Source: Eledone cirrhosa
Lineage: Eukaryota
Direction: 5' to 3'
Length of the DNA stretch: 64,000 nt
Assembly: GCA_964016885.1 (NCBI GenBank)
Contig: OZ024742.1
Span: forward strand, 238,700,001-238,764,000
How positions within the stretch are numbered: position 1 is the stretch's first letter; each line of letters starts with the position of its first letter. Position numbers and translations under genes: made by a program. The notes beneath the pieces were generated by a model, which did no database searches, was not told where the DNA came from, and saw nothing but the letters and a program-made list of their open reading frames with translations. Shown piece by piece: positions 5,332-53,355 of the stretch.

Positions 5332-5424
5332 CAAATCCACCAGCGCATACAATTTTTCCAGCAATCATACCAATTGCAAAGTCCCCTCTCTTGGTAGGCA
5401 TCGGGGGACAGTTCACCCAGCTAT
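5332..5424 (-). CDS. KLHDC8: KLHDC8-like coding exon 4 (not in ORF track)
   Basis: Acceptor ttacag|AT; NSWVNCPPMPTKRGDFAIGMIAGKIVCAGGFG; donor G|GTAAG; 93 bp. Confidence 0.9.
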
Positions 5425-6325: not shown

Positions 6326-6532
6326 TTTCTACAATGTTATAACATTCCAAGATATTTGAGAATCCGTCCTCTGCTTTTTGATTTAACCCTCCAACACTGA
6401 AAATATGCATGTCGTCAGTAACATACATAGCAAAAACTCGTTTTGACGGGATATTTGGTAAAGCCTCCCATTTATTTGAAGAGAAGTCAAACTTTTCAAA
6501 CACATCGACGGGAAGTTTTCCTTGACGTCCAC
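6326..6532 (-). CDS. KLHDC8: KLHDC8-like coding exon 3
   Basis: Acceptor cattgcag|GT; GGRQGKLPVDVFEKFD...WEALPNIPSKRVF (KLHDC8A recalled as GGRQSK...FPNIPYKRAF); donor A|GTAAG; 207 bp. Confidence 0.9.
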
Positions 6533-6929
6533 CTGCAATGAAAAAAACAAACTGCTAACCTTTCATAACCACATACTAAGATGGGCATGGTGAAATACCT
6601 TTTACCTTTTCATTACCATATATCTAAAGTGTGGTTAGAAAAAGCTACCTCACTTACCGCTTTCACAGGCGCCGCTAAATCCCATGGCTGGTTTCTCCTC
6701 CCCCACGTGCGTACAATCCAACTCGTTAACCGGGAGCTGCAAAATTGACATACACCATGTTCCTGATCACCCTAGAGAGAGGCCGACCTGCTTGCCCTTC
6801 CGGTCGAGCACTCCTCAGCTTCCGGCCACCGCACACCACACCATACCCCTCCCCCAAGGATCAATTTCCCCCTTGTCATGCTGCATATGAAAGTCTGCTG
6901 TCCAGGTTGGTGGTTTGCGACTTCTTTGC

Positions 6930-9668: not shown

Positions 9669-10354
9669 TGGTTGCAGCTAGTAGTGATGTGGCCTGGTCG
9701 CTTACACCGGCAGCATATTTTTTCCAGCCTTGACTCTCTACAGTCTCTCGCCATGTGCGCACCCTGGCACCTAAAACAGCGACCGCATGCCGTGGTTGCC
9801 TCCCTTTCACCATTTTGCTGCCAGCTGCATTGGGCCTCTGTAATTGCTATCGCCGCGACACTCTTCTTGGCATCTTCTGCTATGATGCGGGCTTGCTCCA
9901 CCAGTGCACGCATCTCCATTTCTTTGTAACCTGGGACTTGCTGCAATTTCACCGCTATGTCGTCTGGAAATCCATTTATGAACGCCAACCGCACCGTGCG
10001 TTTGCATTCCACCTGATATCCAGCCAACATGGCCAATCGCCGTATTTCCGCTGCGAAAATGTCAACGCGTTCACCGTTCCATCTAATTCTTGCCAGCTTA
10101 GCAAAAGCGGCTAACTGTCGCTCCGCGAACGCTTCCATCATGTGCCTCTCAATCTTTTGCGCATCCCTTTGGCTGTGTCCCTCCATCTCTAGGAAGAGTG
10201 CCAACGCGTCCCCCTCGAGGTACAGTGCCATGAGGCCAACCACATCTATCTTCTGTAAGCTTGCGACCAGCCAGACTTTTCGCAGCCAAGCGACAACATC
10301 GCCTTCACCGGTAAATGCCCTAATCGCTTCGCTCATTCGTAGTCTCATCACCAT
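9617..10354 (-). CDS. G1 gag (245 aa) with two CCHC zinc knuckles
   Basis: CFRCQGAHMARDC and CCRCKRPGHITTSC; open frame. Confidence 0.85.
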   Translation of the reverse strand: MVMRLRMSEAIRAFTGEGDVVAWLRKVWLVASLQKIDVVGLMALYLEGDALALFLEMEGHSQRDAQKIERHMMEAFAERQLAAFAKLARIRWNGERVDIFAAEIRRLAMLAGYQVECKRTVRLAFINGFPDDIAVKLQQVPGYKEMEMRALVEQARIIAEDAKKSVAAIAITEAQCSWQQNGEREATTACGRCFRCQGAHMARDCRESRLEKICCRCKRPGHITTSCNQGNDPRGTTAPVVAPYE

Positions 10355-20971: not shown

Positions 20972-23719
20972 ATTTTTCTTCAGACATAATGTATCTAGAA
21001 CTACATTATTCAATATGTTGAGGTGGTGAGATGTGATTTGTGGAGAATTGTGGTTCTTTTTCTAGTATATCAGAAGACCATATTGTTGACTCATTGTGAA
21101 ATATTTATTTGATGTCTGCAGTTACTCTTATCTCTTCGAAAAGCAGTTAAGAGGTTTTTAAATTTAAAAAGCAGGCATGTCTGTGTGGTAAAAAAAACCT
21201 TTGCTTTGCTGATGATAGGGTTTCTAGTTTGATCCTACTGTGTGGCACCTTGGACAAGTGTCTTCTATCATGGCCTCAAGATGACAAAATACTTCATAGT
21301 CAAATTTGGTAGATGGAAACTATGCAGAAGCCCTTTAATGGTCAAATTCCTGTTCTCAGGTGCAAGACTAATCCATTGCCAGGCTTAAAACTACCACCTA
21401 GCCCTTGGGTGTGTTTAACAGAATCCATTCTGTTGCAAGCATTAGAGCCAGGTATCTAGCCTTAATACTAACTTCCTCCCATCTTCCCACCAGTCTAGGT
21501 GACCTTTAAAAGAGTCATGAGTGCTTCATTTCTTCCTCTAGCAAAGCAATTAAAAATATATGGTACTCTAGTTAAATTACTGTTATCATATTTAATGAAG
21601 TTAACTAGAAACAATTAGACACTGATTGGCCAGCTGACAATTTCAGTATAGAAAAGTTGTTAGGCATTTAATGGTATTAAACAATGTTAACCCTTTTATA
21701 ACTATTTAAGTTTTAAAATAATCCAGATTTAGGAGGGATTTAATATAATAAACTTTCTTCATTATTAATGTAAAGATTAGAACATAAGATCCTCACAGAT
21801 GGTTTATATTTAAATACGAACACTTCAAAGTGAATATTTTTTATATCATAAACTGCCTTAGGTAGGTTGGGGGTAAGTAGTATGACACTAATATGAGAGC
21901 AACCATATGGTGGTACAAAGTTCGCTGAACACATTACTTAATTTGAAACCTGTATTTTATCAGCTACGAAGGTCTAATGAATCTACAATACTGATAAATA
22001 AAAAGATAGGCATTGTAATAAAAGAAAAATTAAATTTCTAAGTTCTAAAAGAGCTTAAAAATTTAAGATGTAAGCTATGGGATTGTGCAATTTTTTGTTG
22101 TTGTTGTGTAAAGATGTTGTCTTGATACATTGTCTAACTCAGATTACACTATCCAATGTGTTTTTCCTTTTCTTTTAAGACAGTAGTGTAATTTTAAGGT
22201 GGCAAATTGGCAGAGTCATTAGAACATCAGATAGAATGCTTTGCAGTACGTGTTTTGGCTCTCTGCATTCATTCCCATGGAGGTTAACTTTGACTTTCAT
22301 CCGTTCGAGGTCAATAAAAAAAGTACCAGTCTAGTATTGGGGTCGATTCTTCCTCTATATCTCTTTCTCACTTCCATTCTCTCACTCTCTATCCTTCTCT
22401 GGAAGAAATTTGCTGTATTCAGACTTGGAGAGGAGATGGGCTCTGCCAGGTTTTTAAAAAATGCCGTAGTTACGCCGTACTCCTACAACTCCCTCAGAAG
22501 TTATGGGTCCATACATACAGTAATTTGAAGGAGATTTAGCTACTAATTTAAGCAGGTCAAGTGACTATGGTGAGATTCCAATTTTTGCTATGGTGTAAAT
22601 TTAAGGGACAAGGCAATTAAAATCTAGTTAAAATGAGAAAATATCAAATATTTAGACAAAACCCACTTCCAAGCTATTTTTGTAATTTTGTTATAACATG
22701 AATTGTTTTGCATGAGCTTGCCCATATGCCCCCTAAATTATTTGTAAATGGTGATGATATTCTATCATAAGAATATGCAATAAGTAATCTTGAATTGGCG
22801 AAATAGATCATCATCATCATCATCTTCGTTTAACGTCCATTTTCCACGCTAGCATGGGTTAGACGGGAGTTGTCCCACTTGAGGCAAGGTTGGTCGGGTG
22901 ACCGTGTCTCGCTCATATGGCAGGTTTTCTACAGCTGGATGCCCTTCCTAACACCAACCACATTTACAGATGTTGGCAGCAAATGCTGTGATCATTAACA
23001 TCAACGTTAAATGTCTATTTTCCATGCTAGCATAGGTTAGATGGGTTATCACGTTATAAGGGTAGACAGGTGAGGTAACCATATCTTGCTCATATGATCT
23101 GTGTTTAGGATTAGCTGAATGCCCTTCCTAATGCCAATCACACAACAATGTGTACTGATAGCTTTTTTGTGGCAAAATTTAAATAAAAGGATTGGATCCT
23201 AATAAGTATTGTTGTTGCACACTGTAAATGTGGTTGGCGTTAGGAAGGCTATCCAGCTGTTGAAAACCAACCCCAAAACACCCAGCCCACACTGAAAAGT
23301 GGATGTGTAAAAACATGGCGAAAAGCACCCAGCACACATTGTCTATGTGGTTTACGTTAGGAAGGACATCCAGCCGGAGAAAACCAGCCAGAAACTCTCC
23401 TATATGAGTGAGACACCATCACCCAACCCAACTTGCCTCTAATTGGGATAGATGTTAATGATGCTGATGATGATTTTGTAGTTGATAGAATAGCTGGCAG
23501 TTTTAGATGAGGTTGTTACCATGCCTTATTGTTTGGAGTCAATATATTCTCTCAATCATTAAAATAATTTTGTGAGCACTGGAAATTTATTTGCTTATAC
23601 ACAGCATTGAATTATGCAAAGTAGTTGAAAAGTTTAAAATAGGACATTGCAAACTCTTTAGACTAGAAGACATTTTATTAGAAAATCGATAAAGATATAA
23701 AGAATTAAAGGTATTATTT

Positions 23720-24386
23720 AGAGAACACCACACTTGATTTCAGGGGGAAAAACTTTTTGTCCTGTTTTTTTTTTCTCTCCGTGTGCTATCAACTAATCTA
23801 ACCTCCAAGATGTTAGCAATCAAACTTTTTTTCAGAGTTTTCCCAAGGACCTTTTTTTTCTTCACATCAATAGGATCTCTAAACCAGTCAGAAACGACTA
23901 GATTTGTAGAAAAAGTAGGGTGAAAGGGTGCAAAAAGACCATTGGAGATTTGCAGATCTACACACTCAAATTTGGTGGGAAATAATTATCTTGCCTCAAT
24001 TTTTTATGGACCTCTTAGATGCTTGTAATAGAGGTTTTTTCCTGGGTTAGGGTTAGGTTTTTCATTTTCTGGGGGAAAAAAAGTGATTGCAAGCATCTAA
24101 GAGGACCAGAAAAAAATCAAGGACAGATAATTATTTCCCATCAAATGAGAGTGTGTAGATCTGCAAATCTCCAATGGTCTTTTCGCACCCTTTCACCCTA
24201 CTTTTTCTACAAATCAAGTGGTTTCTGACTTATTTGGAGGTCATATTCGCTGATAACACGTGAAAAAAAATGGAGAGAAAACTCTGAGGAGTTCTCTGGG
24301 AAAAAAGTTGATTGCCAGAATCTTGGAGCTTAGATTAGTTGATAGCATACGAAAAACCGTGCAAAAAAACTTGCGGCGTGTTCTAT
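23720..24386. mobile_element. Foldback / long-TIR non-autonomous DNA element
   Basis: ~23780-24029 is the diverged reverse complement of ~24086-24351; outer ends agaacac...gtgttct; short spacer containing GGGTTAGGGTTAGG. Confidence 0.75.
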
Positions 24387-24559
24387 AAATTCATGGAATT
24401 AAATTGTTTTTCATCATCAATACTATGTACATACCTTCACGTATGTGTATGTGTGTATGTATGTATGCATGCATGTATCATTGAATTGGACCGATTTAGA
24501 AAATGAGATTCGTTTTCAATTATACCCACATATTTAAATTCCTGTTTATTTTGATTTGT

Positions 24560-25140
24560 TATTTCCGCATCCATCCCCTCTTGTCCGGGCTCGGTTAATG
24601 CCCAAAGATGCCGCCTGCATTCTCATCTCTCCAATTCTCTCAAAAGCCATACAAGAAAAGAATGCCTGGAGACCAAACACACAGACCTGTCCCGAATGGC
24701 AGAGAGGCTGCGTTGACATGGCTCCAGAGCTCAAGCAGGTTCTGGCCAACTGGACAACATCAAATGCAGGCCTTCCTTCAGGCGGAGCAGTCTGGCTAGG
24801 ACCAACACTGCCTCCGAGCCGATTCACAAACAAACAGCAGTGCATGGCTCAATTTGGTGCCCTCCTCATCAACAGGTACACTTCTTGATGACAAGTGCAC
24901 TCGCATCGGAGTGGCCCAATGCCTCTGAGTGTCTAAGTCACACAACTGCCGTTGTGGGGCTGTCGTTGACATGTTTGGCCTGCACTGACTGACAGGCGCC
25001 AGAGTGCAGGCCGGTTCCCGTGACATGCCTCTCTCAATGACATATTGAGAAGATCGGAACGTCAGCAGCTTGTCTGAGGAAGGAGCCCCGCTAGGTAGGG
25101 TGGCTGCTGCAGTGGGTGTCGCTAGCCATTGATCTCGGAA
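24560..25140 (+). mobile_element. Fragment of an RLE-type (CRE-like) non-LTR retrotransposon C-terminus
   Basis: Frameshifted reading AWLNLVPSSSTGTLLDD..RIGVA..L...HNCRCGAVVDMFGLH....SAGRFP.HASLNDILRR, the zinc-finger/RH motif preceding a restriction-like endonuclease. Confidence 0.7.
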
Positions 25141-25777
25141 ATGATTTGCAGAATCGTCCGTAATAGGCCCAGAGCCTCATTACCTTCTGTGGCTCTAGAG
25201 TTCTTGCTTTCCCCCTCATTTTTGGTTTATTTAGTCCTTTCCCTGCTTTCCCATGCAGCCAAGTCTGCCCTTCTTTGCCCCTTCCCCCATTTTATCATAA
25301 CTTAATTTTGCTTCTTTCTTTTTCATATTTATGTAATCCTTAATGGTTTTAAAGCCAACTTTATGAATATTGGTAATGTTATTTATACAACTGTGAATAA
25401 TAAATAAAATAGAAAATGTCAAACATTTGGGGCGTTAAATACCAAGATCGCCGATAATAGTCAGTTTGGAAGTATTATTGAAGAAAATGAAAATATCTCA
25501 TCCAATTCCCTGAATATATATATATGTGAAAAGATTTAGGACACCGACAGCTGAGCTCAGCCATCGGGGTCCTGAATCTTTTCATATTACCCACTTTACT
25601 ACCCCAAGTATCGAGTACTCTGGCGGGTTATGGTCCACCTGGTATCTTACCACACCCTCTCTGATATATATATTTATTCAATTGAAGAAAGTTGGTTAAA
25701 AATCTGCCGACTTATTTTTTTACAAACGTGAAGCACTCCATGGTTTTTGTTCATCCGGAGTTATATTATAATAGTTT

Positions 25778-25813
<36 letters not shown>

Positions 25814-27319
25814 GCGCGTAATAAATCCAGTGAACCGAGAAAAACAATATTTTCTTCAAAAGAGATCTCTTATCGATAATGAATAGATATCAGTTTGTAA
25901 TGGATATTTATGTTGGGATGGATACACTGAGTTCGATAGACAATAATGGATAGAGTATCAATAATATAATATTAGAGACAATAAAGGCGTTGTCAGGTTA
26001 AGGGACGAAATAAAAAAAATTAACTGGAATGGATGATGAAAGTTATTTAAAAATGAAAATAATAATAATAAAGTTAAAAGTATGCAGATGAAAAATATTT
26101 GTTGCATTAAGTATATAAACACAGCCAGTATGTGCGAGCGTGAAATAAATAAATATTTTTGTAGGTTTCAAATATGAAACAAACAGTAAACAAATGCTTA
26201 TAGATTATTGTATTTTCCAAACTTCGTTATTATTCTTTTTTATTCTTTTTTACTGTAAAAATACATTTTCATTTTATAATTTAAATTTAAATAAAATATA
26301 TAAAAATAAGATTACCTTTTATTTCTTCTTTTTTCTAAAATACCAAATTATATTTATACAATCAATTATAAACACGGCCTTAGATATGTAAACCACTCAC
26401 ACAAACATACGCTCTATGGGTGTTTAATACATTCAAATGGAATAGTTTGAATCATAGTTGACTGATATTTTAACAAACACTCGATTCATAGAATATATAA
26501 ATTTGAATATGCATTGATGAGTAAAAAGCAAGAAATCAAATTGTTTTTACCAGGAATACGGTCTAGCAAGCCGGTTGTTGAGTACATAACAAATCATATC
26601 ACTTATTCAGAGAGAAAATGATTAAGGCATACTGCAGTATTTCTACCATTATTTTACAGTAACGCAGAAACGAATCAGCTTTATTATTTTTCATTTTCAG
26701 TTAGTTATTTTAACTCTTTTGATCCCAACACGACAAAAAAAAAAAAAAAAAAAATGCTAATTTTCAAAGACTCGTATTCATATCAAATTAAAACTTTCAT
26801 TATAATTTTATTTCAGAAATTTTTGTTAAGCAACGTTCCAACACCAGCTTACTAATGCAAAAGTTTTATGAAATACCTCCAAATTTTTTTATATTTTCAA
26901 AATTTTATGAATCGCATAGGCAGTGTATTTTATTAGAGATTCAAGAATAAAAGGGTTAAATTGGTGCAAATTATAACAAGTTGTACAGTAGACATTATTG
27001 TCACGATTCAAAGTCTGTAGTAGTCTTCTTTGATTTTTATCCTTCTCCAACTCTTTAGCATTTACATTACTCTATATTTACTATTATATTTTCATGTTAA
27101 AAGGCTTTACCTCACATAATTATCTCACATAATATCAAATCTTTGAGATTTTGTTATTATTTATTTTGAGAACAATACCTTAACATCAGTATGAGTGGCC
27201 AGTTACGGCTGGTTTGAACAGAAAGAGATGAGAGAATTGTGGCCGGTTTAAATGCTAAAGGGCTAAGGTCAATGAAATGAGTAATAGGTGTGATGTTTCG
27301 ATTCCACTGCACAACACCC

Positions 27320-28838
27320 TTCTTCTTCTTCTTCTTCTTCTTCTTCTTCTTCTTCTTCTTCTTCTTCTCCTTCTTCTTCTCCCCTCCTCCTCCCCCTCCT
27401 CACCATCATCATTTCCCCTCCTGCTCCTGTCAGAAGCAGCCGTCTCCAACTGACCCGACTTGATCTCCAAGCGAGACCAGCCAAGCTCATGGATGTCGTC
27501 CAATCATCTTGCTTGGGATCAGCCCATGGGTCTCCTGCCGGTTGGTTTTGCCCCCATGGGCATGTGGTTAGAATATCGGAGCTGTGATCTCTCAATTCGG
27601 AGAAGTAGCGGCTCTTCTTGGAGTGACTCTCTGATCTCCAAGTTATGCACTCTATCGGTCGCTTGTATTCGTGATCATATTCTTTCAGTCATTACCCAAG
27701 ATTCATGACCATAGGTAAAGATTGGCACAAATACCGAATTGAAGATAGCGAATTTGGCGTTTACGCCCTACCCCCTTCTTCTGATTACTGAATGCTGAAG
27801 TTGGCGTATTACTGCACCAGCTTTTGAAATTCTTGCACTTAATTCAGACTCCTGCCTTTCATCACCCGTCAACACAGCCCCAAGATACTTGAACTGCTTT
27901 CGTGGAACACGATTCGCATGTAGAGTGCACTGCTCAGGCTTCCTTGAGAGGGCGAGTGTCTCAATTTTCATAGCATCGATTTTCATTCCAGCCATGCAGC
28001 ACTTGGCATCAAACCTATTGAGTGCAAGTTGGAGATCACCTTTTGTCATCTGCAAATCCTAGCCGACTGATTTTACTCTCGCCAGTCGTGATATTACTTC
28101 CAGCCCGGCTGTGCATGTCAATCCTGTTCATGATAATAATGAACAGGAGAGGTGACAGTACGCACCCTTGGCTGAGTCTGACTCCCACATTGAATGGTTT
28201 CGATTTAGCACCATTTATCCGAACACAAATACTCGGGCATTCGTATAGAGACATCAGGGCAGCAAAAAGCTGACCATCGATCCCATACTCCTCCACAACC
28301 TTCCACAGCAGATCCCGAGGAACACGGTCATATGCTTTTTCAATGTCAACAAAACAAGAATATACTTCTTGGCTATACTCCCACGATTTCTCAAATACCT
28401 GCTGCAGTGTGAATATTTGGTCAGCTGTGCTGCGTCCTGGTCAAAAACCACACTATTCATCTGCTAACTTGGACTCGACAGTCTCCCTACATCTCTTTGC
28501 CAGACACTTATTCTTAAATTTTACCGGGAAGGCTTAACAAGGAGATCCCTCTGTAATTGGAACACTCTCTCTTGTCACACTTTTTTTAAATCGGGATTAT
28601 CACTTCCGATTGCCATCACTTAGGTGCCTTTCCAGAGATTCAGGCCACCTGGTACACATGACTCAGCCCTAGAATACCTTCTCTATTTAAGGCTTTTAGC
28701 ATCTCAGGCCGAAAATCAACTTCCCCAGCGGCCTTGCCACATTTGAGCTCTTTAACCTCAGCCTCCGAGAGATTAGTCACCACTCCCAGATGCACCTCCT
28801 GTACATCAGAAGATGCTAATGTGATCGGGTTTAGGAGA
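27320..28838 (-). mobile_element. RTE-clade LINE, 3' half of RT with (GAA)n tail, broken by G2
   Basis: GKAAG..PEMLK, VRLSQGCVLSPLLF, FADD, FKYLG; (TTC)n on + strand at 27320-27380. Confidence 0.9.
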
Positions 28839-31800
28839 TGTGGGGCTGCCGCGAGATAGAGGGGGGTGTAGAGCTGCCGTGGGAGGGAGATTGCCGGAAG
28901 TTGGGGGACGCCTGACCGGAAGCAGGAGGACGGGGGCGACTCGAGGGACCAAGCGGTCAACAGTGGCCTCTCGGCCATACGCCCTCGAAGGTGACGGACG
29001 TGCGAAGACAGACGCAAGCGGAAAGTACCCCCATGTGGACCAGAGAGACGCAAGGTAAGTTCGAATGCCTCCGACTACAAGCTATTTAGGCGTTTAATGA
29101 AATTTCCCATCTTTCGGCATTTTTACTCCCGGCACGGCAGCCCTTTAGTTTAGCTTTTTTTCTTTTTTGTTCCCTTTCGTGGGGTATCGTTGTTGGTTTT
29201 TTCCGATCTCGCAGGAGAGATGGCAGAGAAACTAAAATTGAATAGCAAGACTATCAAGGCTTTTAACGGCGAAGATGTTGTGGCCTGGTTGAAAAAGGTT
29301 ACATTGGTCGCCTCGCTGCAAGGCATTGACAACGTTGCTGGTTTGATCGCTCTATATCTCGACGGGGATACCCTAGCACTGTACCTCGAGATGGACGAGA
29401 GCGACCAACTGAATGCGGAGAGGATAGGACAGCGACTTAAGGAAGCGTTCATCGAGGGGCCGTACGCTGCTTTTGCCAAGCTAGACAGAGCGAGATGGCA
29501 GGGAGAGCACGTGGACGTGTTTGCGATAGAGTTACGACGATTGGCTATGTTGGCCGGATTCGCGGTAGAATGCGAATGCGCCGTGCGGCTGGCTTTTATG
29601 AACGGGTTCTCCGACGAAATCTCCGTGAAGCTCCAGCAGCTGCCCGGCAACAGGGAGATGAGCATGAACGAGCTCATCGCACAGGCCCGCGTAATAACAC
29701 AGGACACGAGGTGGAGTGTTGTAGCGCTGGCAGCGACGGAAACCATGGCAGTCGACAGCGACCGACGTATGACGAAAGGAGACCAGCCGCTGTGAATAGT
29801 CGTCCGCGTGCGTTCGGAGGCCGGTGCTTCAGGTGCCAGGGCCCGCACCTGGCAAGGGACTGCAGAGAGCCGAAACCAGCTATAGTCTGCTATCGCTGCA
29901 AGCGACCAGGCCACATCGCAAATAATTGCGACCAGGAGGCGAGTAGAGGCGCCTTTGCAGTTGTTGCCCGCAGTGGAAGCCATCGCGAGCAGTCGTGGAC
30001 ACGGGTTGCACGACAACACTAGTTGCACGACAACACTAGTGACCATGGAGGTGGTAAAAAAGTGGAGCGGGATGAGCAGTATAAGGGCAGTCGACGGCAG
30101 GGAGATTAGATGCAGAGGTACCAGCGAGGTGTCGATGGTGGTACGGGGAAGAAAGATTAGGCTTCGGGCGATCGTGATTGACCAGGTGGTGGACGGAATC
30201 GATGTAGTAATGGGCATGGACATGATTGGCTGCCTTGGAGGTGTTACAGTGACAGAAGTCGGGGTGACGTTTGGTAGCGAGAGGACATCATGTGCTGTGA
30301 GCGTGCTGGGAGAATCCACGAAGAACAGGGCGATCCAAGAAGAAAATACCATACATGACAAGGATTTCAGGGTGGTGTTCGATGGGCAGCGGTGGGTAGT
30401 TGAGTGGTACTGGAAGGGAGAGCCACCAACGCTGAAGAACAGAGTGGGCTGCTATCAACATACCCTGAAAGGAAATGCCAGAAACGAGTTTGAGGGAGAG
30501 GTACAGAGATGGATCGAGGAGGGTATACTGCTTCCTTGGAAGGAGGAGGTGAAGTGTGGAGTGTCGCCGCTGATGGCAGTGGTGCAGCCCACGAAGAACA
30601 AGGTTAGGCCGGTGCTGGACTTTCGTGAGCTGAACGAACACGTGCCATGCCACACAGGCGGTGAGGTCACGGATGTTTGCGGGGAAACTTTGCGAGAGTG
30701 GAGGCGAATGACAGGGGCCTCCACGATTGTCGACTTAAAGTCGGCATATCTGCAGTTACACGTGGATGAGAAGCTGTGGAAATATCAGCTAGTCAGGTAT
30801 AAGGGCCAGACATACTGCCTGACCAGGCTTGGCTTCGGGTTGAACTCTGCGCCAAAAATCATGGCGACGGTCCTCAAGGCCATTCTGTAGAAAGCGGACA
30901 AGGTGAAGAGGGCCACCAACTCCTACATCGACGACATCTTGGTGGACGAGACGGTGGTGTTAGCAGCAGAAGTCTCAGGCCACTTGGGAAGGTACGGACT
31001 GACTGCGAAACCGCCGGAGGCGATGGAAGGAGGAGCCGCGCTAGGACTCAGGTTGCAAAGGGATAAGACGGGCACACGAGTGTTTCGGAGGGGTAACGAA
31101 GTCCCGGAACTGGGCCCCGATATGTGTGGTAAATTGGTGGGCCACTATCCGATCGCAGGGTGACTCCGGACGGCATGCAGCTATGTCAAGAGACGAGCAG
31201 ACGGAGTGAGCTGGGCTGACAGGGTTGGAGAGAAGACAGTGGCCATGATGCAGGAAATCGGGGAGAGGGTAAAGGCGGATGACCCAGTGAAAGGACGCTG
31301 GTACGTCCCCAAATCGGAGAGCGGGACCGTATGGTGTGATGCAAGCAGCATAGCACTAGGGGTCACTCTGGAGATAGGGGGCGTCGAGGTCGAGGACGCA
31401 GCCTGGCTCAGGAAGAAGGAGGACTACATCCACATGAACGTGGCCGAACTGGATGCTGTGCTGAGAGGGGTGAATCTCGCCCTGAGATGAGGGCTGCGCA
31501 CCATAGAAATCCGCACTGACTCGGCCACTGTACTCGGATGCTTACCAGTGAGAGGAGGGTGCGAACGAGAGGGGCAGAAGAAATGTTGATAAAGCACCGC
31601 CTGGGAACTCTGGGAGAGCTAACCACTGAATTTTTTTTGCCCTCGGAGAAGAACAGGGCAGACGTATTAACCAGGGTGAAGAAAGCCTGGCTGGAAACGC
31701 CAGGGGACGCAGAGAAGGGGATAGCGGCAGTGTGTCGGCTCAGTGATTCGGAGTTGAGGGGACTGCACGCCATGCACCACATTGGGGTGGATAGGACCCT

Positions 31801-32838
31801 GTTCCTAGCCAGAAGAATCGACTCTGATGTTAGCAGACAGTGTCCAGAGAGTGGTCGGAGGTTGTGACAGACGCCAGTCTATCGACCCTGCCCCGGGCGT
31901 GCACGAGACAGGAAGCATCCCGGTGGAGCACAACTGGAAGTGATTAGCGGTGGACGTGACACACTACCGACAAGGAACGTATCTTTCCATAGTCGATTGT
32001 GGGCCGGGACGGATGGCGATATGGAGGGAAATGAAGACAGGGACTGTGGAGGAAATCGTGCAGATGCTGAGAGAGATATTCTTGGAGCGGGGCCTTGTGG
32101 ATGAACTGCTGATGGAGAACAGCACGGCGTTTCGCTCGGAGGCGCTGAGGGAAATGCTTGACAAGTGGAAGGTGAACCGCTTCTTCAGAGCGTCATACAG
32201 GCCGAGCGGAAATGGGATCGTGGAAAGACATCATCGTACGATCAAGGCCATGGCGGAAAGGGGGCATATTTTGCTAACGGAGGCAGTGTTCTGGTACAAC
32301 ATGTCTCCGGGGGTGGGACAGACCGAGGAGTCGGTGCCGCACAGGGCAATATACAGATATGAATGGCGACACCCGTGCACGGTACCACAGCAGCCGGTGG
32401 AGAGAGAGAGAGCGCATTCGTACGTTGGGCGAAAAGGTATGGATGAAGCCCCCGAACGCGCGTTGCACATCTCAATGGGGAAAGGGAATGGTAACCGCCA
32501 TAAATTACCAAAACAACGTGTCTATGGACTGTGGACGGAATGCCATGTCACGTCTTGGACGTCCGTAGAGTCGTTGTGGTGACAGACTCCGAGGAAGAGG
32601 GAAAATGAAAGTGCCGCCCCAACAGTGCGGAGATCGCAACGGAGCCTCCGCCAACCTAGGTGGGTGGCGGATTTTGAGATGGAGCAGTGTGATGGGGGGG
32701 GAGTGATCCTTGAGATCAGGGGGTCGTGTGGGGCTGCCGCGAGATAGAGGGGGTGTAGAGCTGTCGTGGGAGGGGGATTGCCGGAAGTTGGGGGACGCCT
32801 GACCGGAAGCAAGAGGACGGGGCGACTCGAGGGACCAA
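28839..32838 (+). mobile_element. Second compact Gypsy (G2), related to G1, decayed, 3' LTR truncated, inserted in an RTE LINE
   Basis: 5' LTR 28839-29079 (TGT...ACA); gag ATG at 29220; PR-RT 29955-30890; YIDD, RH and IN ORFs highly similar to G1; purine tract then 3' LTR 32727-32838, which breaks off. Confidence 0.95.
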
Positions 32839-35800
32839 TTCGTTGTATTCGTTCTGTTCTTGTTTGTTGTATTGTTGACCCATACTAATTTCTTCTCTTA
32901 TTGACTCTTTCTATATTATTCTTAGATTGAATAAAAACCTTTGATTTGGTACAAAATAATACAACAATTTTATTCAATCATGGATCCGAAAATATTCAAG
33001 AAAATTCTTCCGGATGATCCTAATGAATCCGATTATGCCTACTGGAAGAGAATGTTGGCGATCTATTTGGAAAACTTGTCTGTTCCTAACGAAAGTAAGC
33101 TGTCAGTTCTTCTGGTTCTTTGCGGAGCCAATGCTTATACTCTCATTGAAGAAGCAACATCATTCGATGAGGCGTTATCCATTCTTGATAATAAATTTCA
33201 AAAGAAAGGCTCAGCAATAATGACCCGACATAAACTACGCAACCATTGTCAACAAGAAGGGCAATCATTGGAGGCCTACATGACTGAATTAAAAGCCCTC
33301 GCAAAGAAATTCCCCACTAAACCCCTAACAGGGGAACAACATAGACAATTGTTGATTTGTGATGCGTTCGTGTCGGGTGTTTAATCCGCCACCATAAAAC
33401 AACGACTTCTGGAATCACCTGACGAAAATCTAGATAAAATATTCCAAACCGCTCTCACATTAGAACTAGCAATAGAAGACGCACAAAATCTGTCAACAAC
33501 AATATAACCGCCGTCACAACCCGTATTCGCTACTTCTTCATCAAAATGTTTCTGGTGTGGTGGTTCATATCACCAAAAATCAGAGTGCCCTGCAAAAAAT
33601 TCAACTTGCAATTTCTGCCACAAGAAAGGCCACTGGGCAACAGTATGTTTTGTTAAAAATAAGAAGGTACTAAAGAAGATAAAACACGCAGCAGTCTTGA
33701 ATAATAAGGAGGGCCCCGATGAAGCCTATGATGGCAGTAATCTTGCTGCCTGTTATAAACTTGCTTCCGTAAATCATAATACAAACCTTTTAACAATTTA
33801 TGTCAATTCACATAAAACAGAAGGTTTACTTGACACAGGCTCAGACAAGTCTTTCATTGACATGAACCTCTTGTCGAAATGGCAAAGTAAATTCAAGAAA
33901 ACTAAGAATAAGAGTGTAATTTTAGCCGACAACAGTAAACTCATAATACGAAGTACGTTTGAAACAACATTAGAATGGGAGGGCCGAGAATACCACATCG
34001 ATCTAATGGTGGTTGACAAACTCATTGCTCCAGTAGTTATGGGTCTTGATATACTTAAAAGGCAGAAGTCTTTAACAATAAAATATGCGGGGGACATGAG
34101 ACCAGTCACGATATGTATGTCAATGCAAACTCTGAATTGTGAAGAATATGATTTAATGCCTGGTATCGAAACTACAAAACTAAAACCATTATCTATACCT
34201 CCTCGAAAATACAATAAAACCAGCAATTCATTAAAACGGAAATCGACAGAATGCTTAAAGCTGGAATAATTCAACAGAGCAGAAGCCCATGGAGAGCGCA
34301 GTGCTTCGTAATAGATCAAGAAAACAAAAAACGTTTTGTCATAGACTACTCAGGCACTATAAATCGTTACACACCATTAGATTCATACCCTAATGCCATA
34401 ATCGAAGACCTAGTCAACAAAATTTCAAAATACGTATTTCTCGAAAATAGATCTAAAGGCAGATTATCACCAAATACCCATCAAATCTTCCGACTTTAAG
34501 TTAACTGCATTCGAGGCCTGTGGCCGACTATACGGATTTACCCGTCTTCCGTTTGGATGCACAAATGCCGTCCCAATTTTCCAACGAATAATGGACACTT
34601 TCATAGACAATTACAACTTACAAAATACCTACTCATACCTTGACGACATTATTATAATAGGCGGTGGATTGGCAGTATCGGTAGAGGGTCGGATGCCATG
34701 CTTTCCAGCATAGTTACGTCCCTTAACGATCTGAGTTCAAATCCCGCTGAGGTTGACTTTGCCTTTCATCCTTACGGGGTCGATAAAATAAAGTACCAGT
34801 AATGCACTGGGTAATTGCTGGCCTTGTGCCAAAAAGTAGAAACAATTATTATAATTGGCCCTTGCCATTCTGAGTTCAAATCCCGCCGAGGTTAACTTTG
34901 CCTTTCATCCTTACGGGGTCGATAAAATAAAGTACCAGTAATGTACTGGGATAATTGCTGGCCTTGTGCCAAAAGTAGAAACAATTATTATAGGAGAAGA
35001 CACAGTCGAAGAACATAACCATAACCTAAAGCAATTCATGAATGCAGCTAACAATGCAGGTATGCAATTGAATCGAGACAAATGCAGCGTTAATCAAAAT
35101 AGAATACATTTCCTTGGACTTGTCATAGAAAAAAGGTAAATTAAGACCGGACCCTGAAAGGTATAAAGCCCTTATTGACATGCCGTTCCCAAAGACGTTA
35201 AAAGAGTTGAACCGGGTAATCGGTCTTTTTGCATACTATGCTAAATGGATTAAGGGCTCTTCTAACCTCTCAGTCGTTCTTACAAAGGCAAGAAACACCA
35301 TTAATAAACAAGGTCTATCAAACGAAGAAAAATTTACTATTAATAAGATGAAGGAAGAACTCATAAAGGCATCACTGTGTTCACCCGATTTCACTACACC
35401 ATTTATAATCGAAACCGACGCATCAAATAATGCCATTGGCAGAACTCTATCACAAAATGGTCGTCCAATTGCTTTTCTTCGTAGAACACTAAATAAGTCA
35501 GAAAGAGGACATTCCATCATCGAAAACGAAGCTTGCGCAATTATAGAATGTTGTATAAAATAGAGGCATATAATCAGCGCTGTTCCACATTGTAATATAA
35601 TAACAGACCAATGATCGGTTGCATTTGCGTTCAACAAAAAACACACTTCCAAGATTAAAAACGAGAAGGTAGCCCGCTGGCGACTGGAGTTAAGCAATTT
35701 TAACCTTACCTTCTCATATAGACCTGGTTCATTAAACCAAGCCGCAGACGCCCTATCGCGCTGCTGCTCTACTAAGACGGAACACGAATTATACAATATT

Positions 35801-37097
35801 CACTGACGTCTATGTCATCCGGGGGTCACCAGACTTCTATATTATTGTAAATCAATGAACTTGGCATATTCTATTAATGAAATAAGAGAAGTTATCGCCA
35901 ATTGCAAAATATGCCGTGAATGTAAACCACAATTCTATAAACCACCCAAAGGAAGATTAATACATGCCACAAGACCCTGGGAAAGACTATCAATGGACTT
36001 TGTGGGTCCCATGGCTATCTCAAACGGTTTTCGATTTATATTAACTATAGTTGACGAGTACTCACATTTTCCATTCGCCATTCCCTGTAAAGAGATAACA
36101 ACCGACGTAGTAATTAAACATCTATTGGAGATATTCTCTATATTTGGAAAACCCAGTTCGATTCATACAGATAGGGGACGTCAATTTGAATCACAAAAAC
36201 TCAAAGATTTCTTATGGAGTAATAACATTATAAAAAGCCACACCACGCCATATCGACCCCAAGCCAACGGCCAATGCGAAAGAGTTAACGGCACAATATG
36301 CAAAGCGATAAGTCTGGCATTGAAGACAAATAATCTCAATAAAAATGGAGTAACATGATTCTAATCGCTCTGTCGTCTATCCGAGGATTGCTTTGCACTG
36401 CTACAAACGCCACGCCACATGAAAGAGTATTTTCATTCACCAGATCAACAAAGAACGGCACAGAAATACCAGAGTTGCTAAATAAACCGGGAACAACCGT
36501 GCTACATCGACGTCACATAAGGAATAAAGGTGATGATCTCACGGAAAACGTTCAACTCATCAAGACGATCTCACCCCACTTTGCCAAGGTACAATTTAAT
36601 AATGGAAGAATAGACACAGTCTCAACTACACACCTCGCACCAGCAGCATCACCACAAAACAATGGAAATTCAACAACATCGGAGTGTCAGAATAACAACT
36701 CCCCAAAAGGCGCCAATTTAACTCAACCAACAGTAATATCTACACCTGTGGCAGTTGGGAACGAAAGTATGACATCTACCGTCGATGACAATCCTACAGA
36801 GAGTGCGGAATTTAACGACGATGAATCTTCTGACACATTCTTAACCTCGAATAACACACCCCAACAACAAAGAACATGCCGAGGACGTGCTAGAGGGAAA
36901 GAATGTGATGATATGATTTGTTTTATAGCATCACTTTCTTCTCTTTGATTTGATTCCTTTTTATTCTTATTCGTTGTATTCGTTCCGTTCTTGTTTGTCG
37001 TATTGTTGACCCATACTAATTTTTTCTCTTATTGACTCTTTCTATATTATTCTTAGATTGAATAAAAACCTTTGATTTTGTACAAAATAATACAACA
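32838..37097 (+). mobile_element. AT-rich Gypsy LTR retrotransposon (G3), decayed, 5' LTR truncated
   Basis: 5' LTR remnant 32838-32966; 3' LTR 36904-37097 (TG...CA) after PPT AGAGGGAAAGAA; gag from 32980 with CCHC motifs ~33547-33650; LLDTGS protease; YLDD RT; ETDAS RNase H; IN (SMDFVGP, TDRG, CER). Confidence 0.95.
34657..34992 (+). mobile_element. Two tandem tRNA-derived SINE copies (second 5'-truncated) inserted in G3 RT
   Basis: A-box-like TGGCAGTATCGG, B-box GAGTTCAAATCC, core gcctttcatccttacggggtcgataaa...agtaccag; ATTATTATA at 34648, 34845 and 34984; excision restores YLDDIIIGEDTVEEH. Confidence 0.9.
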
Positions 37098-37101
37098 TAT
37101 A

Positions 37102-37762
37102 GGCATTGGTTAAGTTTAACGTCCTCGAAATTGAAAGTGGATTTTCTGACAAGTGAATGTGTTTTTTTGTTTTTTTACAGTGAAAGTTACGATACACTGT
37201 TTGTTTATTTACAACAGGTCTCTATAGTGATATGGTGTTAATTAGTATTGCGTGTGTGATTATTTTCTCTTATATATATATGTGTGGGTGTGTATATGTG
37301 TGTATATATATGTGTGTCTGTATGTATATATATATGTGTGTTTGTATATATATATGTGTTTGTGTCATCATCATCGTTTAGATGTTTTTACCCAAATCCC
37401 TTATCATTCTCTGTCTTTCTTATGACCCGGCCTTAATTTGTTTATAGTTGGTGCCAACTTTGGCAAGATATTACAAAAACATCTAAACGATGATGATGAC
37501 ACAAACACATATATATATACAAACACACATATATATATACATACAGACACACATATATATACACACATATACACACCCACACATATATATATAAGAGAAA
37601 ATAATCACACACGCAATACTAATTAACACCATATCACTATAGAGACCTGTTGTAAATAAACAAAGAGTGTATCGTAAATTTCATTGTAAAAAAAAAAACA
37701 AACACATTCACTTGTCAAAAAATCCACTTTCAATTTCGAGGACGTTAAACTTAACCAATGCC
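37102..37762. mobile_element. Mutator/Foldback-like non-autonomous element, 288-bp TIRs, 9-bp TSD
   Basis: Arms 37102-37389 and 37475-37762 (GGCATTGG...CCAATGCC), 85-bp spacer, TSD CAACATATA at 37093-37101 and 37763-37771. Confidence 0.9.
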
Positions 37763-37958
37763 CAACATATACGTATCCTTGTACTCATTAGCACACGACC
37801 CTAGAATATTACTCTCTGTACCCTTATATCTGTTTATCTTTATTCACTACCCCTAGCCACACAGGAATCACATTACATATAACCCGGACTAACTGGGGAC
37901 TAACTATAGTCTATTTGCACATTTCATCAGATTTTGCCACCTTCAACTTCGCATCACG

Positions 37959-38599
37959 AGTGTGAATAACTAATAATCGTTTGGTACACGCGATGATCCG
38001 ACGGATGTGGCAGCTTTCCCGACAGCACGCCAGGTACTCGGGTCGACCAGCCTTCCTTGAGTGCGTGCTTGGAAAAATAAATTTCCCCTTCTTTCGGTAA
38101 GCGAAAATACTCGGAACGGCTGCGTCGCCCTGGGGCCCTGTCGGACTTGGAACCCGCCGCGACACCGGCTATTGACCGCTAAACAGTACCTTTAAATTCT
38201 AGGCTTAATCATAACTTTTAACTTTATCTTACCTCCTTCTACTAGCACTTAACTAAATCCCCCACCAGTGTGAATAACTAGTAATCGTTTGGTATATACG
38301 ATGGCCAACCGACGGTGGCGGACTTCCCGCTAACACACCCGGCGCTTAAGACAGTTAACATTCCTGGAGTGCTTGGAAAACTAAATTTCCATTTCTTTCG
38401 CTAGACGATAATACTCGGAACGATTGACACGCCGTTGGGCCTCGGGCTGGCCGGGGTCCGCAACGTTGCTGGTTATTGACCGCTAAGCATGGGCTTAATC
38501 TTTGCTCTATATTCTACCCTGAAACTTTATCGTGACTATCTATAATACACTTAAACTTTTTCATAACAGCCTCCTTCTGTAAATTCTTTAACTAAATCT
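37959..38599. repeat. Diverged tandem duplication of a ~310-330 bp unit with GC-rich core
   Basis: Units start at 37959 and 38267; shared blocks agtgtgaataacta.taatcgtttggta, ccgacgg, gtgcttggaaaa.taaatttcc, aatactcggaacg, tattgaccgctaa, ggcttaatc, aactttatc, ttaactaaatc. Confidence 0.85.
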
Positions 38600-38905
38600 A
38601 ACAACAACAGACGTACAGTAGTATGTATATACATACATACATGCACACATATATATATGTACGTATGGGTTTACCGAACATTTAGTATAACGTCTGTATA
38701 CATATATGTATGTAGGTATACATACTTATATTTAAGTATCAGCCGTACTAAGAGTGAGAAATGAAATTTTATTTTTTCCATTTATCGTTTTCGGTACGCC
38801 CAGCCGACTAACTCACTCGATATGCAAATTAGGCTGCTCAGCCGTTAATATGCATAAGGAAAGTATATACTTTCAAACGTTCTATCGACTAACAGGAAGG
38901 TATAC

Positions 38906-38944
38906 GGTGCTGATGACAGCTAATAAGCTAGAAACTAGTTCATC
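38906..38944 (+). ncRNA. Minimal type I hammerhead ribozyme with palindromic stem III
   Basis: GGUG-CUGAUGA-cAGCU(aaua)AGCUa-GAAACUAGUU/CAUC; AACUAGUU is self-complementary; stem I only 4 bp. Confidence 0.6.
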
Positions 38945-39049
38945 ATTTCTTTGTCAGTGTTGAACAAAATAGCAACGATGGTTGCCGAACACTGTACGGC
39001 TAATAATTCGGGCTGTTTGTTTACAAACAAACCGAGCATTATAATACGT

Positions 39050-39950
<901 letters not shown>

Positions 39951-44144: not shown

Positions 44145-46306
44145 TATAGCGGGTTTACTGGGTTGTATGAATGTAACAAGGAATACATTGTTTGTTTGTA
44201 GATAATATTTAATTAACAATGGTAGATAGTATAGTTGACATGTCAAAGATGAGGATGGTAGAATGAAGCAAAGTTAGTAGTTACCGTTTTGATTGCCAGG
44301 CAAACGCGGCTGGCAGAGGACGCCTGGCTAAGGCCAGGCGCCTGTTGGCCAAATGAATGGCAGAGCCAAAATGAGAGGCTCTTGACCTGGTGCCGAAAAG
44401 GCAATGAGAGTTTGAGAGCTTAAAGTTGTTAGTTTTATAGGGTTCTGACCGGAAGTTGCAGAAAGGGTTCTACTTCCCGTCTAGATCCTAATCAAAACAA
44501 GGGAGACAACCGCTACATAACCTCCCGCCAGAATTTTAGTGTATAAAAATCGAAATGAAAATATGTAGCAAGTTGGCGAGAATGTTGTAACAGGCATGAA
44601 AATTACGACAAAAGAATGTTTGGAAAAATCAATGATAGATATCAAGGTAGCCAACCGCTCTTGGCCAGAGAACGACTGGACATCCCTCTATCCATCACCC
44701 AAAGATACAATGTAATAAAGTAAAAGTAATAGAAGAGCTCAAAGTTCAAATGTACAAAATATAGTTCACAGGTGTGCAATCACATGGCAGCAGGAAAGAA
44801 AGTGTGTTCCAGAGAATGAATGCAGGTGGTTTCTGTTCTGTGGTATATCGTGAAATTTCCAACCTCCGAATGGATTTTCTCACAGGGAGAGTGCTGCAAA
44901 AATAAATTCTCTGGCGTTCTGCTGGTTGTTGGTGAAGCTGTGTTGATATATTGCTGCTGCTGCTGTTGTCTCGCTGAGTGAGCGTATTCGGTGTTTAAAT
45001 TCACAGTAAAAAAAAAAAAAAAAATTTTTTTTTCTTTTTTTTTAGAAAAAATGAGTTGCGCAAAGTGCTAGAAATAGCAGCCGAAGTTGATGGTCGATGT
45101 TGAGAATGCGTTGACCTGGAAGGGTCAAGAGGCCAGCGACCAGAGAAATAAGCATTCCCAATAAATGCGCGGTTATCAACGGCAAATTTACATTGTAAAT
45201 TTATAAACCGGCAAATAGAAGAATATAGCTTAAGGCTGAAGAATCCTTGGCGAGAAATGTTATCTCTGGCGTGCGGCTATGTCTGTGAGTAGAGACATCT
45301 CTGTGAATCGAGAATTTGTGCTGCCTACACGTGCCAATACAAGGTTGAAAAAAATAATATTTCTAACGCGCGAGAAAATGATAGTGCAATTTTGAAAGTG
45401 ACAATGATGAAAAAGAAAGGCTTCACTCAGCATAATTATTGGTGTGAACTTTGGGAAAAAAAAACTTGAACGATGAAGAAAACGATGAACAAAAAGGCAA
45501 TGGTTCATCGAAAATAAATGTTCCTGTTGAAATGTTTTTTTAAAGAATATCAAATTTTTTTTTTTTTTTTTTTTGTGTTTTGAAAGAGTTCGTTGTAAGA
45601 AACGAGAAACATATATATATATCGTGAAATGTTTTGTTTTTTTTTGTTTTGAAAGTGTTCGTTGTAAGAAACGAGAAACATATATATATATTGGTGAAAT
45701 GCGACAGTTAATTGATGCGTGAGAGAAAAAGTCTGTCTGTGCGAATTCCACATGTGCGTGTGTGCGTGTCCTTGAGTATTTTCATAGTTTGTCGATTAAT
45801 TTACTGTGTATTCGTAATGTTACTCACACGAAACCAGATGTGCTATTTTTTCTTTTTTTTTTGGGGGGGGGGGGGGGGTGTGTGACCACTTATAGCGATG
45901 AACGGCTGCGTGTTCGTATCACGTCAGGGTTACCAATATAGCGAGATTACTGGGTTGTATGAATGTAACAAGGAATACATGGTTTGGTGTATAATATTTA
46001 ATTAACAATGGTAGATAGTATAGTTGACATGTCAAAGATGAGGATGGTAGAATGAAGCAAAGTTAGTAGTTACCGTTTTGATTGCCAGGCAAACGCGGCT
46101 GGCAGAGGACGCCTGGCTAAGGCCAGGCGCCTGTTGGCCAAATGAATGGCAGAGCCAAAATGAGAGGCTCTTGACCTGGTGCCGAAAAGGCAATGAGAGT
46201 TTGAGAGCTTAAAGTTGTTAGTTTTATAGGGTTCTGACCGGAAGTTGCAGAAAGGGTTCTACTTCCCGTCTAGATCCTAATCAAAACAAGGGAGACAACC
46301 GCTACA
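44145..46306 (-). mobile_element. Non-autonomous LTR element N2, complete
   Basis: LTRs 44145-44517 and 45937-46306; 4-bp TSD ATTT; PBS TGGTAACCCTGACGTGAT (45918-45935, tRNA-Trp-like); purine tract beside 44517; 1.4 kb non-coding interior. Confidence 0.92.
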
Positions 46307-51558: not shown

Positions 51559-53355
51559 TTTAACGAAGGGTATTTTTAAGAAATTGTTGTTAGATGGATT
51601 AAGTTGTTGTTAGATGGATTAACATGATTGTTGGATGTAATAACAATAAATGATTTAGTTTATATATAAAGGTTTACTTCACTTGAGTCAAAGAACAAAC
51701 ATATTACCACGAGTTGCAAAGGTTGACAATGTTATTTTTGTTGGTTCGTGAGGCTGATTTAGTCTGCGCCAAGAGATAATGGTCTGTGGTTGACTGTAGA
51801 CCACTGTGGCTCGTAGATATCGGTGAATCTTTCACATAGCTGGTCTGTATCGCAGTGTTCCGATCTCTCTGTATTTCTGTAGACCTCTGGGGCCTGAAGG
51901 TAGCGGTGAATCTTTACATAGTTTGTTGCTAGCGTAATGCTCCGATCTCTCTGTATGTAAGGTGGGAAAATATAGGCTTTATATACCTGTCGCTTTCTGT
52001 CTCCCACCTTGAGGGGATAGCCCACGCATGAACCTGTTCACACCAAAAGGGTGGTGACCTAGAATTTTACCTTTAGGTGCCACCCAAGGTTCAAGGCGTG
52101 GACAGATTTCGCTACATTAGTTCCCTACCCAGATCGATTATAAAAGGGGTAGAGAAATCTAATTCTAGAAGCGTGTCCCAAAACACAATGTGGGTACTAC
52201 ATGTATTTCGTAGTGTTGTGTATGGATGGCTGAACGTTGGGGTTACGGTATCGGATTACGATATAACAGGACTATTTCTCTCAATGTATCATACGTAAGA
52301 TTCTCTTCCAGTGAATCGAGGTTTACGCTGACATGAGTGTGTGCAATTTTGAGTTGCATGCTTGAGTGAGTTCAAGCAAGTAGTTACGGTGGGTTGATTA
52401 TCATGTTTAATAGCTGTTGCCGTACCTCGACCAGTTGAAAAGTGATCTCGCTGAGACCCAACCGAATCCAGAATATACCATAGACAAAAACATGGTGTGT
52501 GACAAAGGAAATGATGTGTTTGATGCAAAACGTGTTATTCATACAGGCATATAATACAGTAAAACGAATAAAGAAAATAAAAATGACATTCATATTTAAC
52601 CTGTAAAAAAAAAAAAAAAAAAAAGATTTTTACAAAAAGTTCAGTTTTCTCTTTGTGATCGTTTTCTTGCTTTGTTGTTGGAAATTACGAAGCAAGTGGT
52701 GAAGTGTTTGGTAATGAGTTCAAGTGAAGTTACTGTAAATATTCCGCAGAATAGAAGTTTGGTGAGAGAAAGTTGTTTATATATCAAAGCCCGCGTGTGG
52801 TTTTTTTTTTTTTTTTAAAATCACATCCGGTTCACCAATTTAACGAAGGATATTTTCCAGAAATTGTTGTTAGATGGATTAACATGATTGTTGGATGTAA
52901 TAACAAGAATTACATCAAAAAGAACAAACATATTACCATGAGTTGCAAAGGTTGACAATGTTATTTTTGTTGTTGGTTCATGAGGCTGATTAGTCTGTGC
53001 CAAGAGAGAGAGAGATAATGGTCTGTAGTTGACTGTAGACCACTGTGGCCTGTAGATAGCAGTGAATCTTTCACATAGCTGGTCTGTATCGTAGGGCTCC
53101 GATCTCTCTGTATTTCTGTAGATCTCTGGGGCCTGAAGGTAGCGGTGAATCTTTACATAATTTGTTGCTAGCGTAATGCTCCGATCTCTCTGTATCTAAG
53201 GTGGGAAAATATAGGCTTTATATACCTGTCGCTTTCTGTCTCCCACCTTGAGGCGATAGCCCACGCATGAACCTGTTCACACCAAAAGGGTGGTGACCTA
53301 GAATTTGACCTTTAGGTATCACCTAAGGTTCAAGGCATGGACAGATTTTGCTATA
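51559..53355 (-). mobile_element. Non-autonomous LTR element N3 (TRIM/SMART-like), complete
   Basis: LTRs 51559-52116 and 52839-53355; 4-bp TSD CATG; degenerate Trp PBS TGGTGAACCGGATGTGA 52821-52837; PPT GGGTAGGGAAC beside 52116; ~720 bp interior. Confidence 0.88.

Follow-up and report, generated by a model that had tools for sequence, protein, structure and literature searches.

A tandem pair of GC-rich units between 37959 and 38599 of the window (the whole 64-kb stretch of DNA analysed) raises the question of whether their diverged parts still pair because a structured RNA is kept there, and, if so, what kind of RNA this may be and what carries it. The original prediction, made from the letters alone, saw in the pair either tandem copies of a novel structured ncRNA or ribozyme, or repeated cis-elements of an unknown mobile element. 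Here, we propose from fold modelling and from copies at other loci that both units carry an RNA fold, probably under selection and not yet catalogued, which is repeated in an array within a cephalopod repeat of many copies.

Two units with block-like conservation

Self-comparison of the window confirmed the tandem pair, with a spacing of 304-308 bp between the units (Table 1). The units are identical in 167 of the 238 aligned columns, and the block-like conservation that had been noticed by eye is indeed present, as 78 columns fall in runs of at least 8 vs 41 in shuffles (p = 0.005; for the run count p = 0.003). CpG is abundant, as claimed (observed/expected 1.27 and 1.33 in the units vs 0.68 for the window; GC of the modules 51-54%), and no ORF of at least 100 aa lies between 37028 and 41475, in agreement with the reported lack of a shared ORF. 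A search with the unit model found no third unit in the 64-kb window. Four spacer motifs, which the original prediction does not list, precede each module in identical order; their spacing differs, and one unit has them about 50 nt farther from its module than the other. The extent first given to the feature, 37959..38599, is too short for the family, which spans 37770-38599 and continues beyond both ends. Behind unit 1, this family sequence contains GTGAATAA, the complement of the unit's 3' block, overlapping an AATAAA at 37844-37839, while the copy of unit 2 is truncated at 38599, other copies carrying different letters onward.

Table 1. Features of the tandem pair, its predicted folds and the elements that cut it
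Feature	Coordinates	Strand	Details
Foldback element, not module part	37102..37762		288-bp arms, 98% complementary; 9-bp target duplication
Further family sequence following unit 1 (no third unit)	37770..37954	-	Depth 1,500-4,400
Unit 1	37955..38262	-	A-rich spacer 38262-38208 and structured module ~38207-37955
Basal 3' block, unit 1	37960..37995	-	ATCG/CGAT hairpin (loop of 11 nt) followed by TAGTTATTCACAC; counterpart in unit 2 at 38268-38303
Rod, unit 1 (predicted)	37998..38168	-	Variable 5' arm 38168-38118 with variable 3' arm 38052-37998
Apical domain, unit 1 (predicted)	38048..38122	-	Depth 21,000-33,000 in X1, the deepest part of the repeat
Near-invariant hairpin GGAAA-TTTATT-TTTCC	38071..38086	-	T5 run on minus; AATAAA on plus (38076-38081)
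Basal 5' block, unit 1, GCGGTCAATA	38168..38182	-	Unit 2 match 38472-38486; possible partner of the 3' block
Spacer motifs GATTTAGTTAA, AGAAGGAGG, GATAAAGTT, GATTAAGCC	38203..38259	-	Unit 2 equivalents 38598-38492
Unit 2	38263..38599	-	Longer spacer 38599-38499 and structured module ~38498-38263
Rod, unit 2 (predicted)	38305..38472	-	5' arm 38472-38422 with 3' arm 38360-38305
Apical domain, unit 2 (predicted)	38356..38426	-	Same layout as unit 1; pair probability 0.86-0.98; depth 10,600-18,400
Terminal-inverted-repeat element, not module part	38607..39111		Cuts the copy on the right

The pair is an internal fragment of a high-copy repeat

Reads were placed on 37770-38615 from four public runs, including two of one sample that were used as contigs. 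A third sample with an identical species label gave 1209 raw reads on this interval, and X4 (organism B), with one contig covering the spacer only, was left out of the analysis. Among the 7 runs listed, the best match shares only 0.24 of the words, and none of those listed is an RNA run, which has no bearing on expression. Organism A may thus be a different species or individual, so that differences from it mix decay with divergence. Letter differences were taken from 40 of 283 rows and loose ends from 19 of 389.

This search for further copies, a check proposed in the original prediction, yielded 1094 contig pieces from one run of a sample and 930 from its other run. Among the 1094 pieces, identity was at least 99% for 152, 95-99% for 247, 90-95% for 407 and below 90% for 288, so that 695 are less than 95% alike. 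Summed depth, which does not equal copy number, was about 600-8,600 outside the cores vs 10,600-33,000 on two cores of 60 nt, a core being about 10 times deeper than its flanks, and the long pieces listed had a depth of 5-16 each. From these depths we infer hundreds of copies of the two-unit cassette, and about 10 times more of the cores in other contexts.

Depth falls off at about 38600, where 12 X2 contigs go on with other letters, and is 0 beyond 38610. Because of this lack of depth at the right end, the 14 contigs that extend past the ends of the stretch must sit at the left end. The window thus holds an internal stretch of 840 bp from a cephalopod repeat with many copies, and the pair is no unique locus. 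Continuation of the family past 38599 was absent from the window (2 weak matches, 0.78 expected). We also considered a solo LTR, from TG at 38609 to CA at 37780, and dropped it because no target duplication fits and contigs pass 37770. The copies show CpG-type decay, and contigs span the junction between unit 1 and unit 2, the neighbouring units being kept in fixed order. Moreover, joints that skip 88-117 bases lie between the basal block and the core, which is compatible with modules having exchanged arms.

Surroundings of the copy

On its left, the copy is interrupted by the foldback element, which would be Mutator-like by the criterion of its target duplication, and by the adjoining Gypsy 3' LTR, whose end is at 37097; on its right, the terminal-inverted-repeat element interrupts it. 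Nested fragments of Gypsy elements and small elements with inverted repeats surround the units. A kelch gene (KLHDC8-like) lies 21 kb away, and tblastn gave five coding exons for it on the minus strand (16703-4663). Three of these are 67-81% identical to a cuttlefish protein and the exons 39-61% to an abalone one, so that a cephalopod is the most likely host; SINE-like repeats common in octopus may point to that group. Considering that the repeat is high-copy, with CpG-decayed copies among nested transposon fragments, repeated cis-elements of a mobile element fit best among the options of the original prediction; its structured RNA also fits, but with different helices, as described below.

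Several other elements were observed in the window. Two Gypsy elements at 28839-37097 are fused via a deletion at 32838, which cuts into the 3' LTR of the outer and the 5' LTR of the inner element. One intron of the kelch gene contains, in inverted orientation (6855-10231), a relative of the outer element that is 72% identical. LTR-like direct repeats (373 bp, 98% identical) at 44145-44517 and 45937-46306 enclose 1.4 kb without a clear gene and may form a young TRIM-like element. A second set of direct repeats (51561-52114 and 52841-53353, 87% identical, LTR- or pseudo-LTR-like) contains an internal 83-bp tandem and, toward the 3' end, a long hairpin; its 11-13-nt start is common to the cut end at 38599-38609, and the unit model gave no match there. 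Further long self-inverted, foldback-like stretches lie at 23780-24351 and 3985-4462. The octamer ATGCAAAT at about 38822-38830, which we take to be snRNA-enhancer-like, stands in the inverted-repeat element, about 225 bp before the unit 2 spacer on the minus strand; by depth it is outside the repeat family and is probably due to chance.

Both units are predicted to fold alike on the minus strand

On the minus strand, minimum-energy folding gave one layout for both units, in which a three-way junction sits on top of an irregular rod about 50 bp long. The junction is near-invariant and contains a small hairpin and the GGAAA/TTTCC hairpin. The helices TTCC/GGAA and GAGT/ACTC, which close the junction, have pair probabilities of 0.93-0.98 over both units. 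In unit 1 the upper rod helices CAGCC/GGCTG, TTCC/GGAA and GAGT/ACTC reach 0.93-1.00, and in unit 2 an AA bulge separates GCGGAC/GTCCGC from CCCG/CGGG, with helices at 0.91-0.96. The GGAAA/TTTCC hairpin reaches a probability of 0.95 in unit 2 and of 0.60 in unit 1, where it is weaker because of interference by an apical 4-nt insertion at 38061 that is missing from most copies. At the equivalent position of unit 2 (38381), 19,772 of the 19,822 depth carries the unit-1 letter. Toward the base, a helix of GTCAATAAC with GTTATTCAC is possible and would explain the invariance of both blocks, but it is uncertain because forcing it costs 2.4 kcal/mol in unit 1 and 6.2 in unit 2. A variant locus retains the 11-nt loop of the 3'-block hairpin, read by eye, with two minus-strand G-U pairs.

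The covariation that had been claimed between the units appears to be present in the long rod, which the original prediction does not describe, while the hairpins listed for it are mostly not that fold. Compared to the minimum-energy rod, forcing the GTGTCGC/GCGACGC hairpin costs 9.4 kcal/mol, and the penalties when forced are 5.7 kcal/mol for CGTTG/CAACG, 2.9 for the local GCGG/CCGC hairpin, and 11.6 and 6.8 for the GCAC(TC) helix. Other listed pairings depend on letters that few copies have: the change at 38169 behind the GCC-versus-ACC covariation is not shared by 91% of X1 depth, the 4-nt insertion behind the AGCACGC helix (38061) by 96%, and the T at 38308 behind ACC(gtc)GGT by 98%, so that these are most likely private changes and not covariation. 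RNAalifold, also suggested as a check, gave on an automatic alignment a central helix different from that of the minimum-energy rod, using the invariant GCAC.

Selection on the fold

Overall, tests of selection on the fold were mixed. The arm duplex of unit 1 is more stable than its shuffles (-47.8 vs -35.6 kcal/mol, p = 0.008), that of unit 2 alone is not significantly so (p = 0.13), and neither are the cross-unit duplexes (p = 0.28 and 0.56). We tested 18 majority letters one at a time, 7 in unit 2 and 11 in unit 1. The 7 letters make the minus fold of unit 2 more stable, by a sum of -13.4 kcal/mol (p = 0.002), and give p = 0.28 on plus. Those of unit 1 give no stabilising on minus (p = 0.83) and a marginal value on plus (p = 0.05), a test in which 38047 and 38124, as the two sides of one pair, are penalised twice. 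A model of 48 pairs, built from both sequences, has 90 of 96 cells pairing vs 28-47% for slid partners; it holds 2 double changes only, a number that 123 of 500 shuffles reach. Folding z-scores were modest, from -1.1 to -2.8, with the plus strand equal or better in 2 of 4 regions, and for whole units they were -1.1 and -0.3.

Loose ends and joints from other loci provide the most independent support for the fold, their pairings being read by eye, outside the model building and without a computed chance level. In X5, 190 reads have a loose end before 38358 and 108 reads have one behind 38419. Both ends are unlike either unit of the window; they pair nested, with 8 of 9 bp and then 4 bp, and their lengths of 49+62+34 fit one 150-nt read, suggesting a third module type whose arms have changed and still pair. 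In X1, the ends of 13 contigs before 38361 can pair with those of 6 contigs behind 38431, over 5, 5 and 4 of 5 bp; they are probably a fourth module type, though the two sets of ends may come from different molecules. In addition, the joint letters of a unit-2 variant, 38303>38066 with 38117>38456, form 6, 4 and 5-6 bp pairs.

These data bear on the possibility, which we judge very unlikely, that the units are an old GC-rich internal repeat or a SINE-like central domain whose structure is unselected, the pairing coming from GC content and local inversions. The modest z-scores and the nonsignificant covariation between two sequences are what it would give, and SINE superfamilies with a central domain between variable flanks are described (PMC4758252). 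The clustered conservation, the lack of a tRNA head and the further module types, whose arms pair nested with changed letters, argue against it.

The functional strand

We regard the minus strand as fairly likely to be the functional one. The arm-duplex pattern is alike on both strands, so this test selects neither, and the preference comes from the fold common to both units, from the unit 2 majority letters, and from G-U pairing within the 5' hairpin and within a variant of the 3' hairpin. The 48-pair model has 5 G-U pairs on minus vs 3 on plus. The earlier argument that G-U wobbles favour the minus strand is nonetheless weaker than claimed, because several of these pairs (38012, 38035-36, 38467) arose by CpG decay. 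Judged by eye, A prevails on minus in the bulges and in the linkers of the junction, which also favours this strand, while invariant unpaired letters overall are not A-enriched (A 21, C 19, G 18, T 15).

Against the minus strand, a few conserved positions (38426/38356) form G-U on plus where minus has A-C, the z-scores do not separate the strands, and the loop of the most conserved hairpin reads AATAAA on plus. Together with the marginal result for the unit 1 majority letters, these points are what a functional plus strand or a single-stranded DNA structure would show, either as a poly(A) signal presented in a loop for LTR-like 3'-end control or, by analogy with the homologous regions of large DNA viruses, as cis-elements for replication or transposition. 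We think this quite unlikely, considering that on plus unit 1 keeps the upper rod and unit 2 folds otherwise, that as DNA unit 2 has this rod in the centroid only and not in the minimum-energy fold, and that no viral match was found, in addition to the G-U count and the A-rich bulges of the minus strand.

Possible roles of the modules

Our tentative first choice is that the units are repeated protein docking modules on the RNA of a presumably mobile element: a junction that does not vary, rod letters that are free to change and the repetition itself would suit a docking site presented several times for avidity. The module would have been multiplied through tandem duplication inside an active mobile element, and selection would have retained the junction sequence, as a protein contact, and the geometry of the rod rather than its letters, while genomic copies like the one in the window would now decay. 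The most speculative step, drawn only by analogy from the response and transport elements of retroviruses, is that the bound protein may load the long element RNA for export or packaging. Against this reading, the window, in which the copy is cut on both sides, lacks the parent element and has no ORF connected with the array. Pol III terminates at T runs; the conserved T5 run in the minus-strand core therefore argues against Pol III genes, and the modules would rather be part of a Pol II transcript.

The same T5 run bears on the idea that the units are clustered small RNA genes carried by a larger element, comparable to Pol II snRNAs or to decoys such as adenoviral VA RNA I/II, for which the spacer motifs would provide promoter or 3'-end signals. 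The recurrence of the four motifs in order before each module would suit such genes, as would the many module types with one common core. A GTT-AA(A)G motif 6-8 nt behind the last hairpin of each module also loosely resembles the snRNA 3' box, whose consensus we assume here. We nevertheless consider small genes unlikely, since the distance from the spacer motifs to the module varies by about 50 nt, the T5 run lies inside the core, and neither an Sm site nor a conserved A/B box nor a TATA at fixed distance was seen by eye.

With equally little confidence we consider that each module is an undescribed self-cleaving ribozyme that would cut the transcript once per unit into monomers of about 300 nt, like the hammerheads of animal non-LTR retrozymes. 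The units combine unvarying single-stranded letters at the junction with helices that can be exchanged, as ribozymes typically do; their size equals that of retrozyme monomers (about 300 bp), and the RNAalifold consensus helix through the invariant GCAC could be a second state. On the contrary, the CUGANGA core occurs in neither unit on either strand, no Rfam ribozyme was found at E up to 10, and neighbouring units are only 70% alike and inherited in fixed order, which fits poorly with rolling-circle multimers.

A broader reading, doubtful but possible, takes the pair as part of a polycistronic array, borne by a cephalopod mobile element, of at least 10 diverged copies of a new RNA class that would be cut into separate RNAs. 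In such an array an invariant catalytic or protein-binding junction would sit on an exchangeable double-stranded rod, possibly as a new ribozyme class or as a battery of decoys or guides against silencing or editing.

Large new structured RNAs are seldom found in animal genomes, and one fold apparently kept across diverged module types offers a natural variant set for covariation analysis. If the units are docking modules, as we prefer, they would show how an invertebrate mobile element assembles its RNA particle; if they cut themselves, they would be a new ribozyme class. Cephalopods show heavy A-to-I editing, and long imperfect rods in thousands of copies are also candidate ADAR substrates or decoys.

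Comparison with known systems

The suggested Infernal check (Rfam 15, cmscan, 64 kb) gave no match at the gathering score. At E up to 10 there were 11 hits, 10 of them in the TA-rich flank and a single one in the units, a SNORA9 fragment (E = 6.5). ARAGORN found no tRNA gene, and no Rfam tRNA or 5S part lies in the units. The one CUGANGA, at 37930, is outside the units with GAAA not in reach. Lariat-capping, hairpin, twister, pistol and hatchet ribozymes were set aside as their defining motifs are lacking, and so were RNase P/MRP, SRP, telomerase RNA, dicistrovirus- or HCV-like IRES, T-box and tmRNA.

Pattern scans of viral contigs gave 6 chance hits, with three scans at 0. The metagenome pattern scan gave at least 119 loci, and among the matches listed none extends beyond about 20-33 bases; the unit model run on 100 of 125 metagenome loci had no hits. 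Prokaryote genome scans gave 0 and 1 hit, the single hit failing the model, and the best phage blastn E values were 0.2-0.8. As the viral, prokaryotic, metagenome and phage sets hold little animal DNA, these results do not limit the molluscan range of the repeat. The literature searched yielded no description of the repeat, Repbase, Dfam and paper supplements being outside that scope, and it may stand in Repbase or Dfam as unclassified, with its structure unnoted.

Two metagenome loci, L023 (1294-1510) and L092 (94-310), carry HEARO RNA on the minus strand (RF02033, 159 bits), and the 10-nt start GTCAATAACC of this HEARO/IscB omega RNA is common to them and to the units. In contrast, the window has no HEARO match at E up to 10, the unit model finds nothing in L023 or L092, and no nuclease ORF of the IscB, TnpB or Fanzor type lies near the units, in a copy cut on both sides; we treat this isolated 10-nt match as chance.

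SINEs with a central domain and the TRIMs Cassandra, Helenus and Ajax are high-copy and non-coding with a conserved inner block (PMC4758252, PMC10886601), like the present repeat. Here, however, the fragment has no tRNA or 5S part and its conservation follows the fold, not promoter boxes; no tRNA, 5S or 7SL head with A and B boxes was found in the window, outside which the ends of the element lie.

Animal non-LTR retrozymes share more of its organisation. Those of a mussel are tandem repeats of about 300 bp in thousands of copies (PMC7229834), and with the Penelope-like pseudo-LTRs (PMC8557442; bioRxiv 10.64898/2026.07.22.740005) retrozymes share with our pair tandem units of about 300 bp, many copies, a molluscan host and structured RNA. 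The spacing of 304-308 bp falls within the retrozyme range of about 170-400 bp for high-copy tandem monomers. The pair differs by being without a type I hammerhead (CUGANGA, stem II, GAAA), by the GC of its modules, as retrozymes are below 45% (PMC7229834), and by neighbouring units that are diverged and in fixed order.

The preferred docking reading finds its nearest counterparts in RNA export elements. The layout of the HIV RRE, a long stem with an apical junction, resembles that of the modules. More generally, retroelements have several unrelated and structurally diverse export elements of 162 to >1400 nt (PMC11379458). Those named there (MPMV CTE, MusD MTE, HERV-K RcRE and SERV-K MER11) are non-coding, strongly structured, 200-400 nt long and borne by mobile elements, like the modules described here with their predicted structure and presumed mobile element. 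No sequence likeness was seen between them, and those elements stand singly in vertebrate LTR elements, whereas the modules form a tandem, diverged array in a cephalopod.
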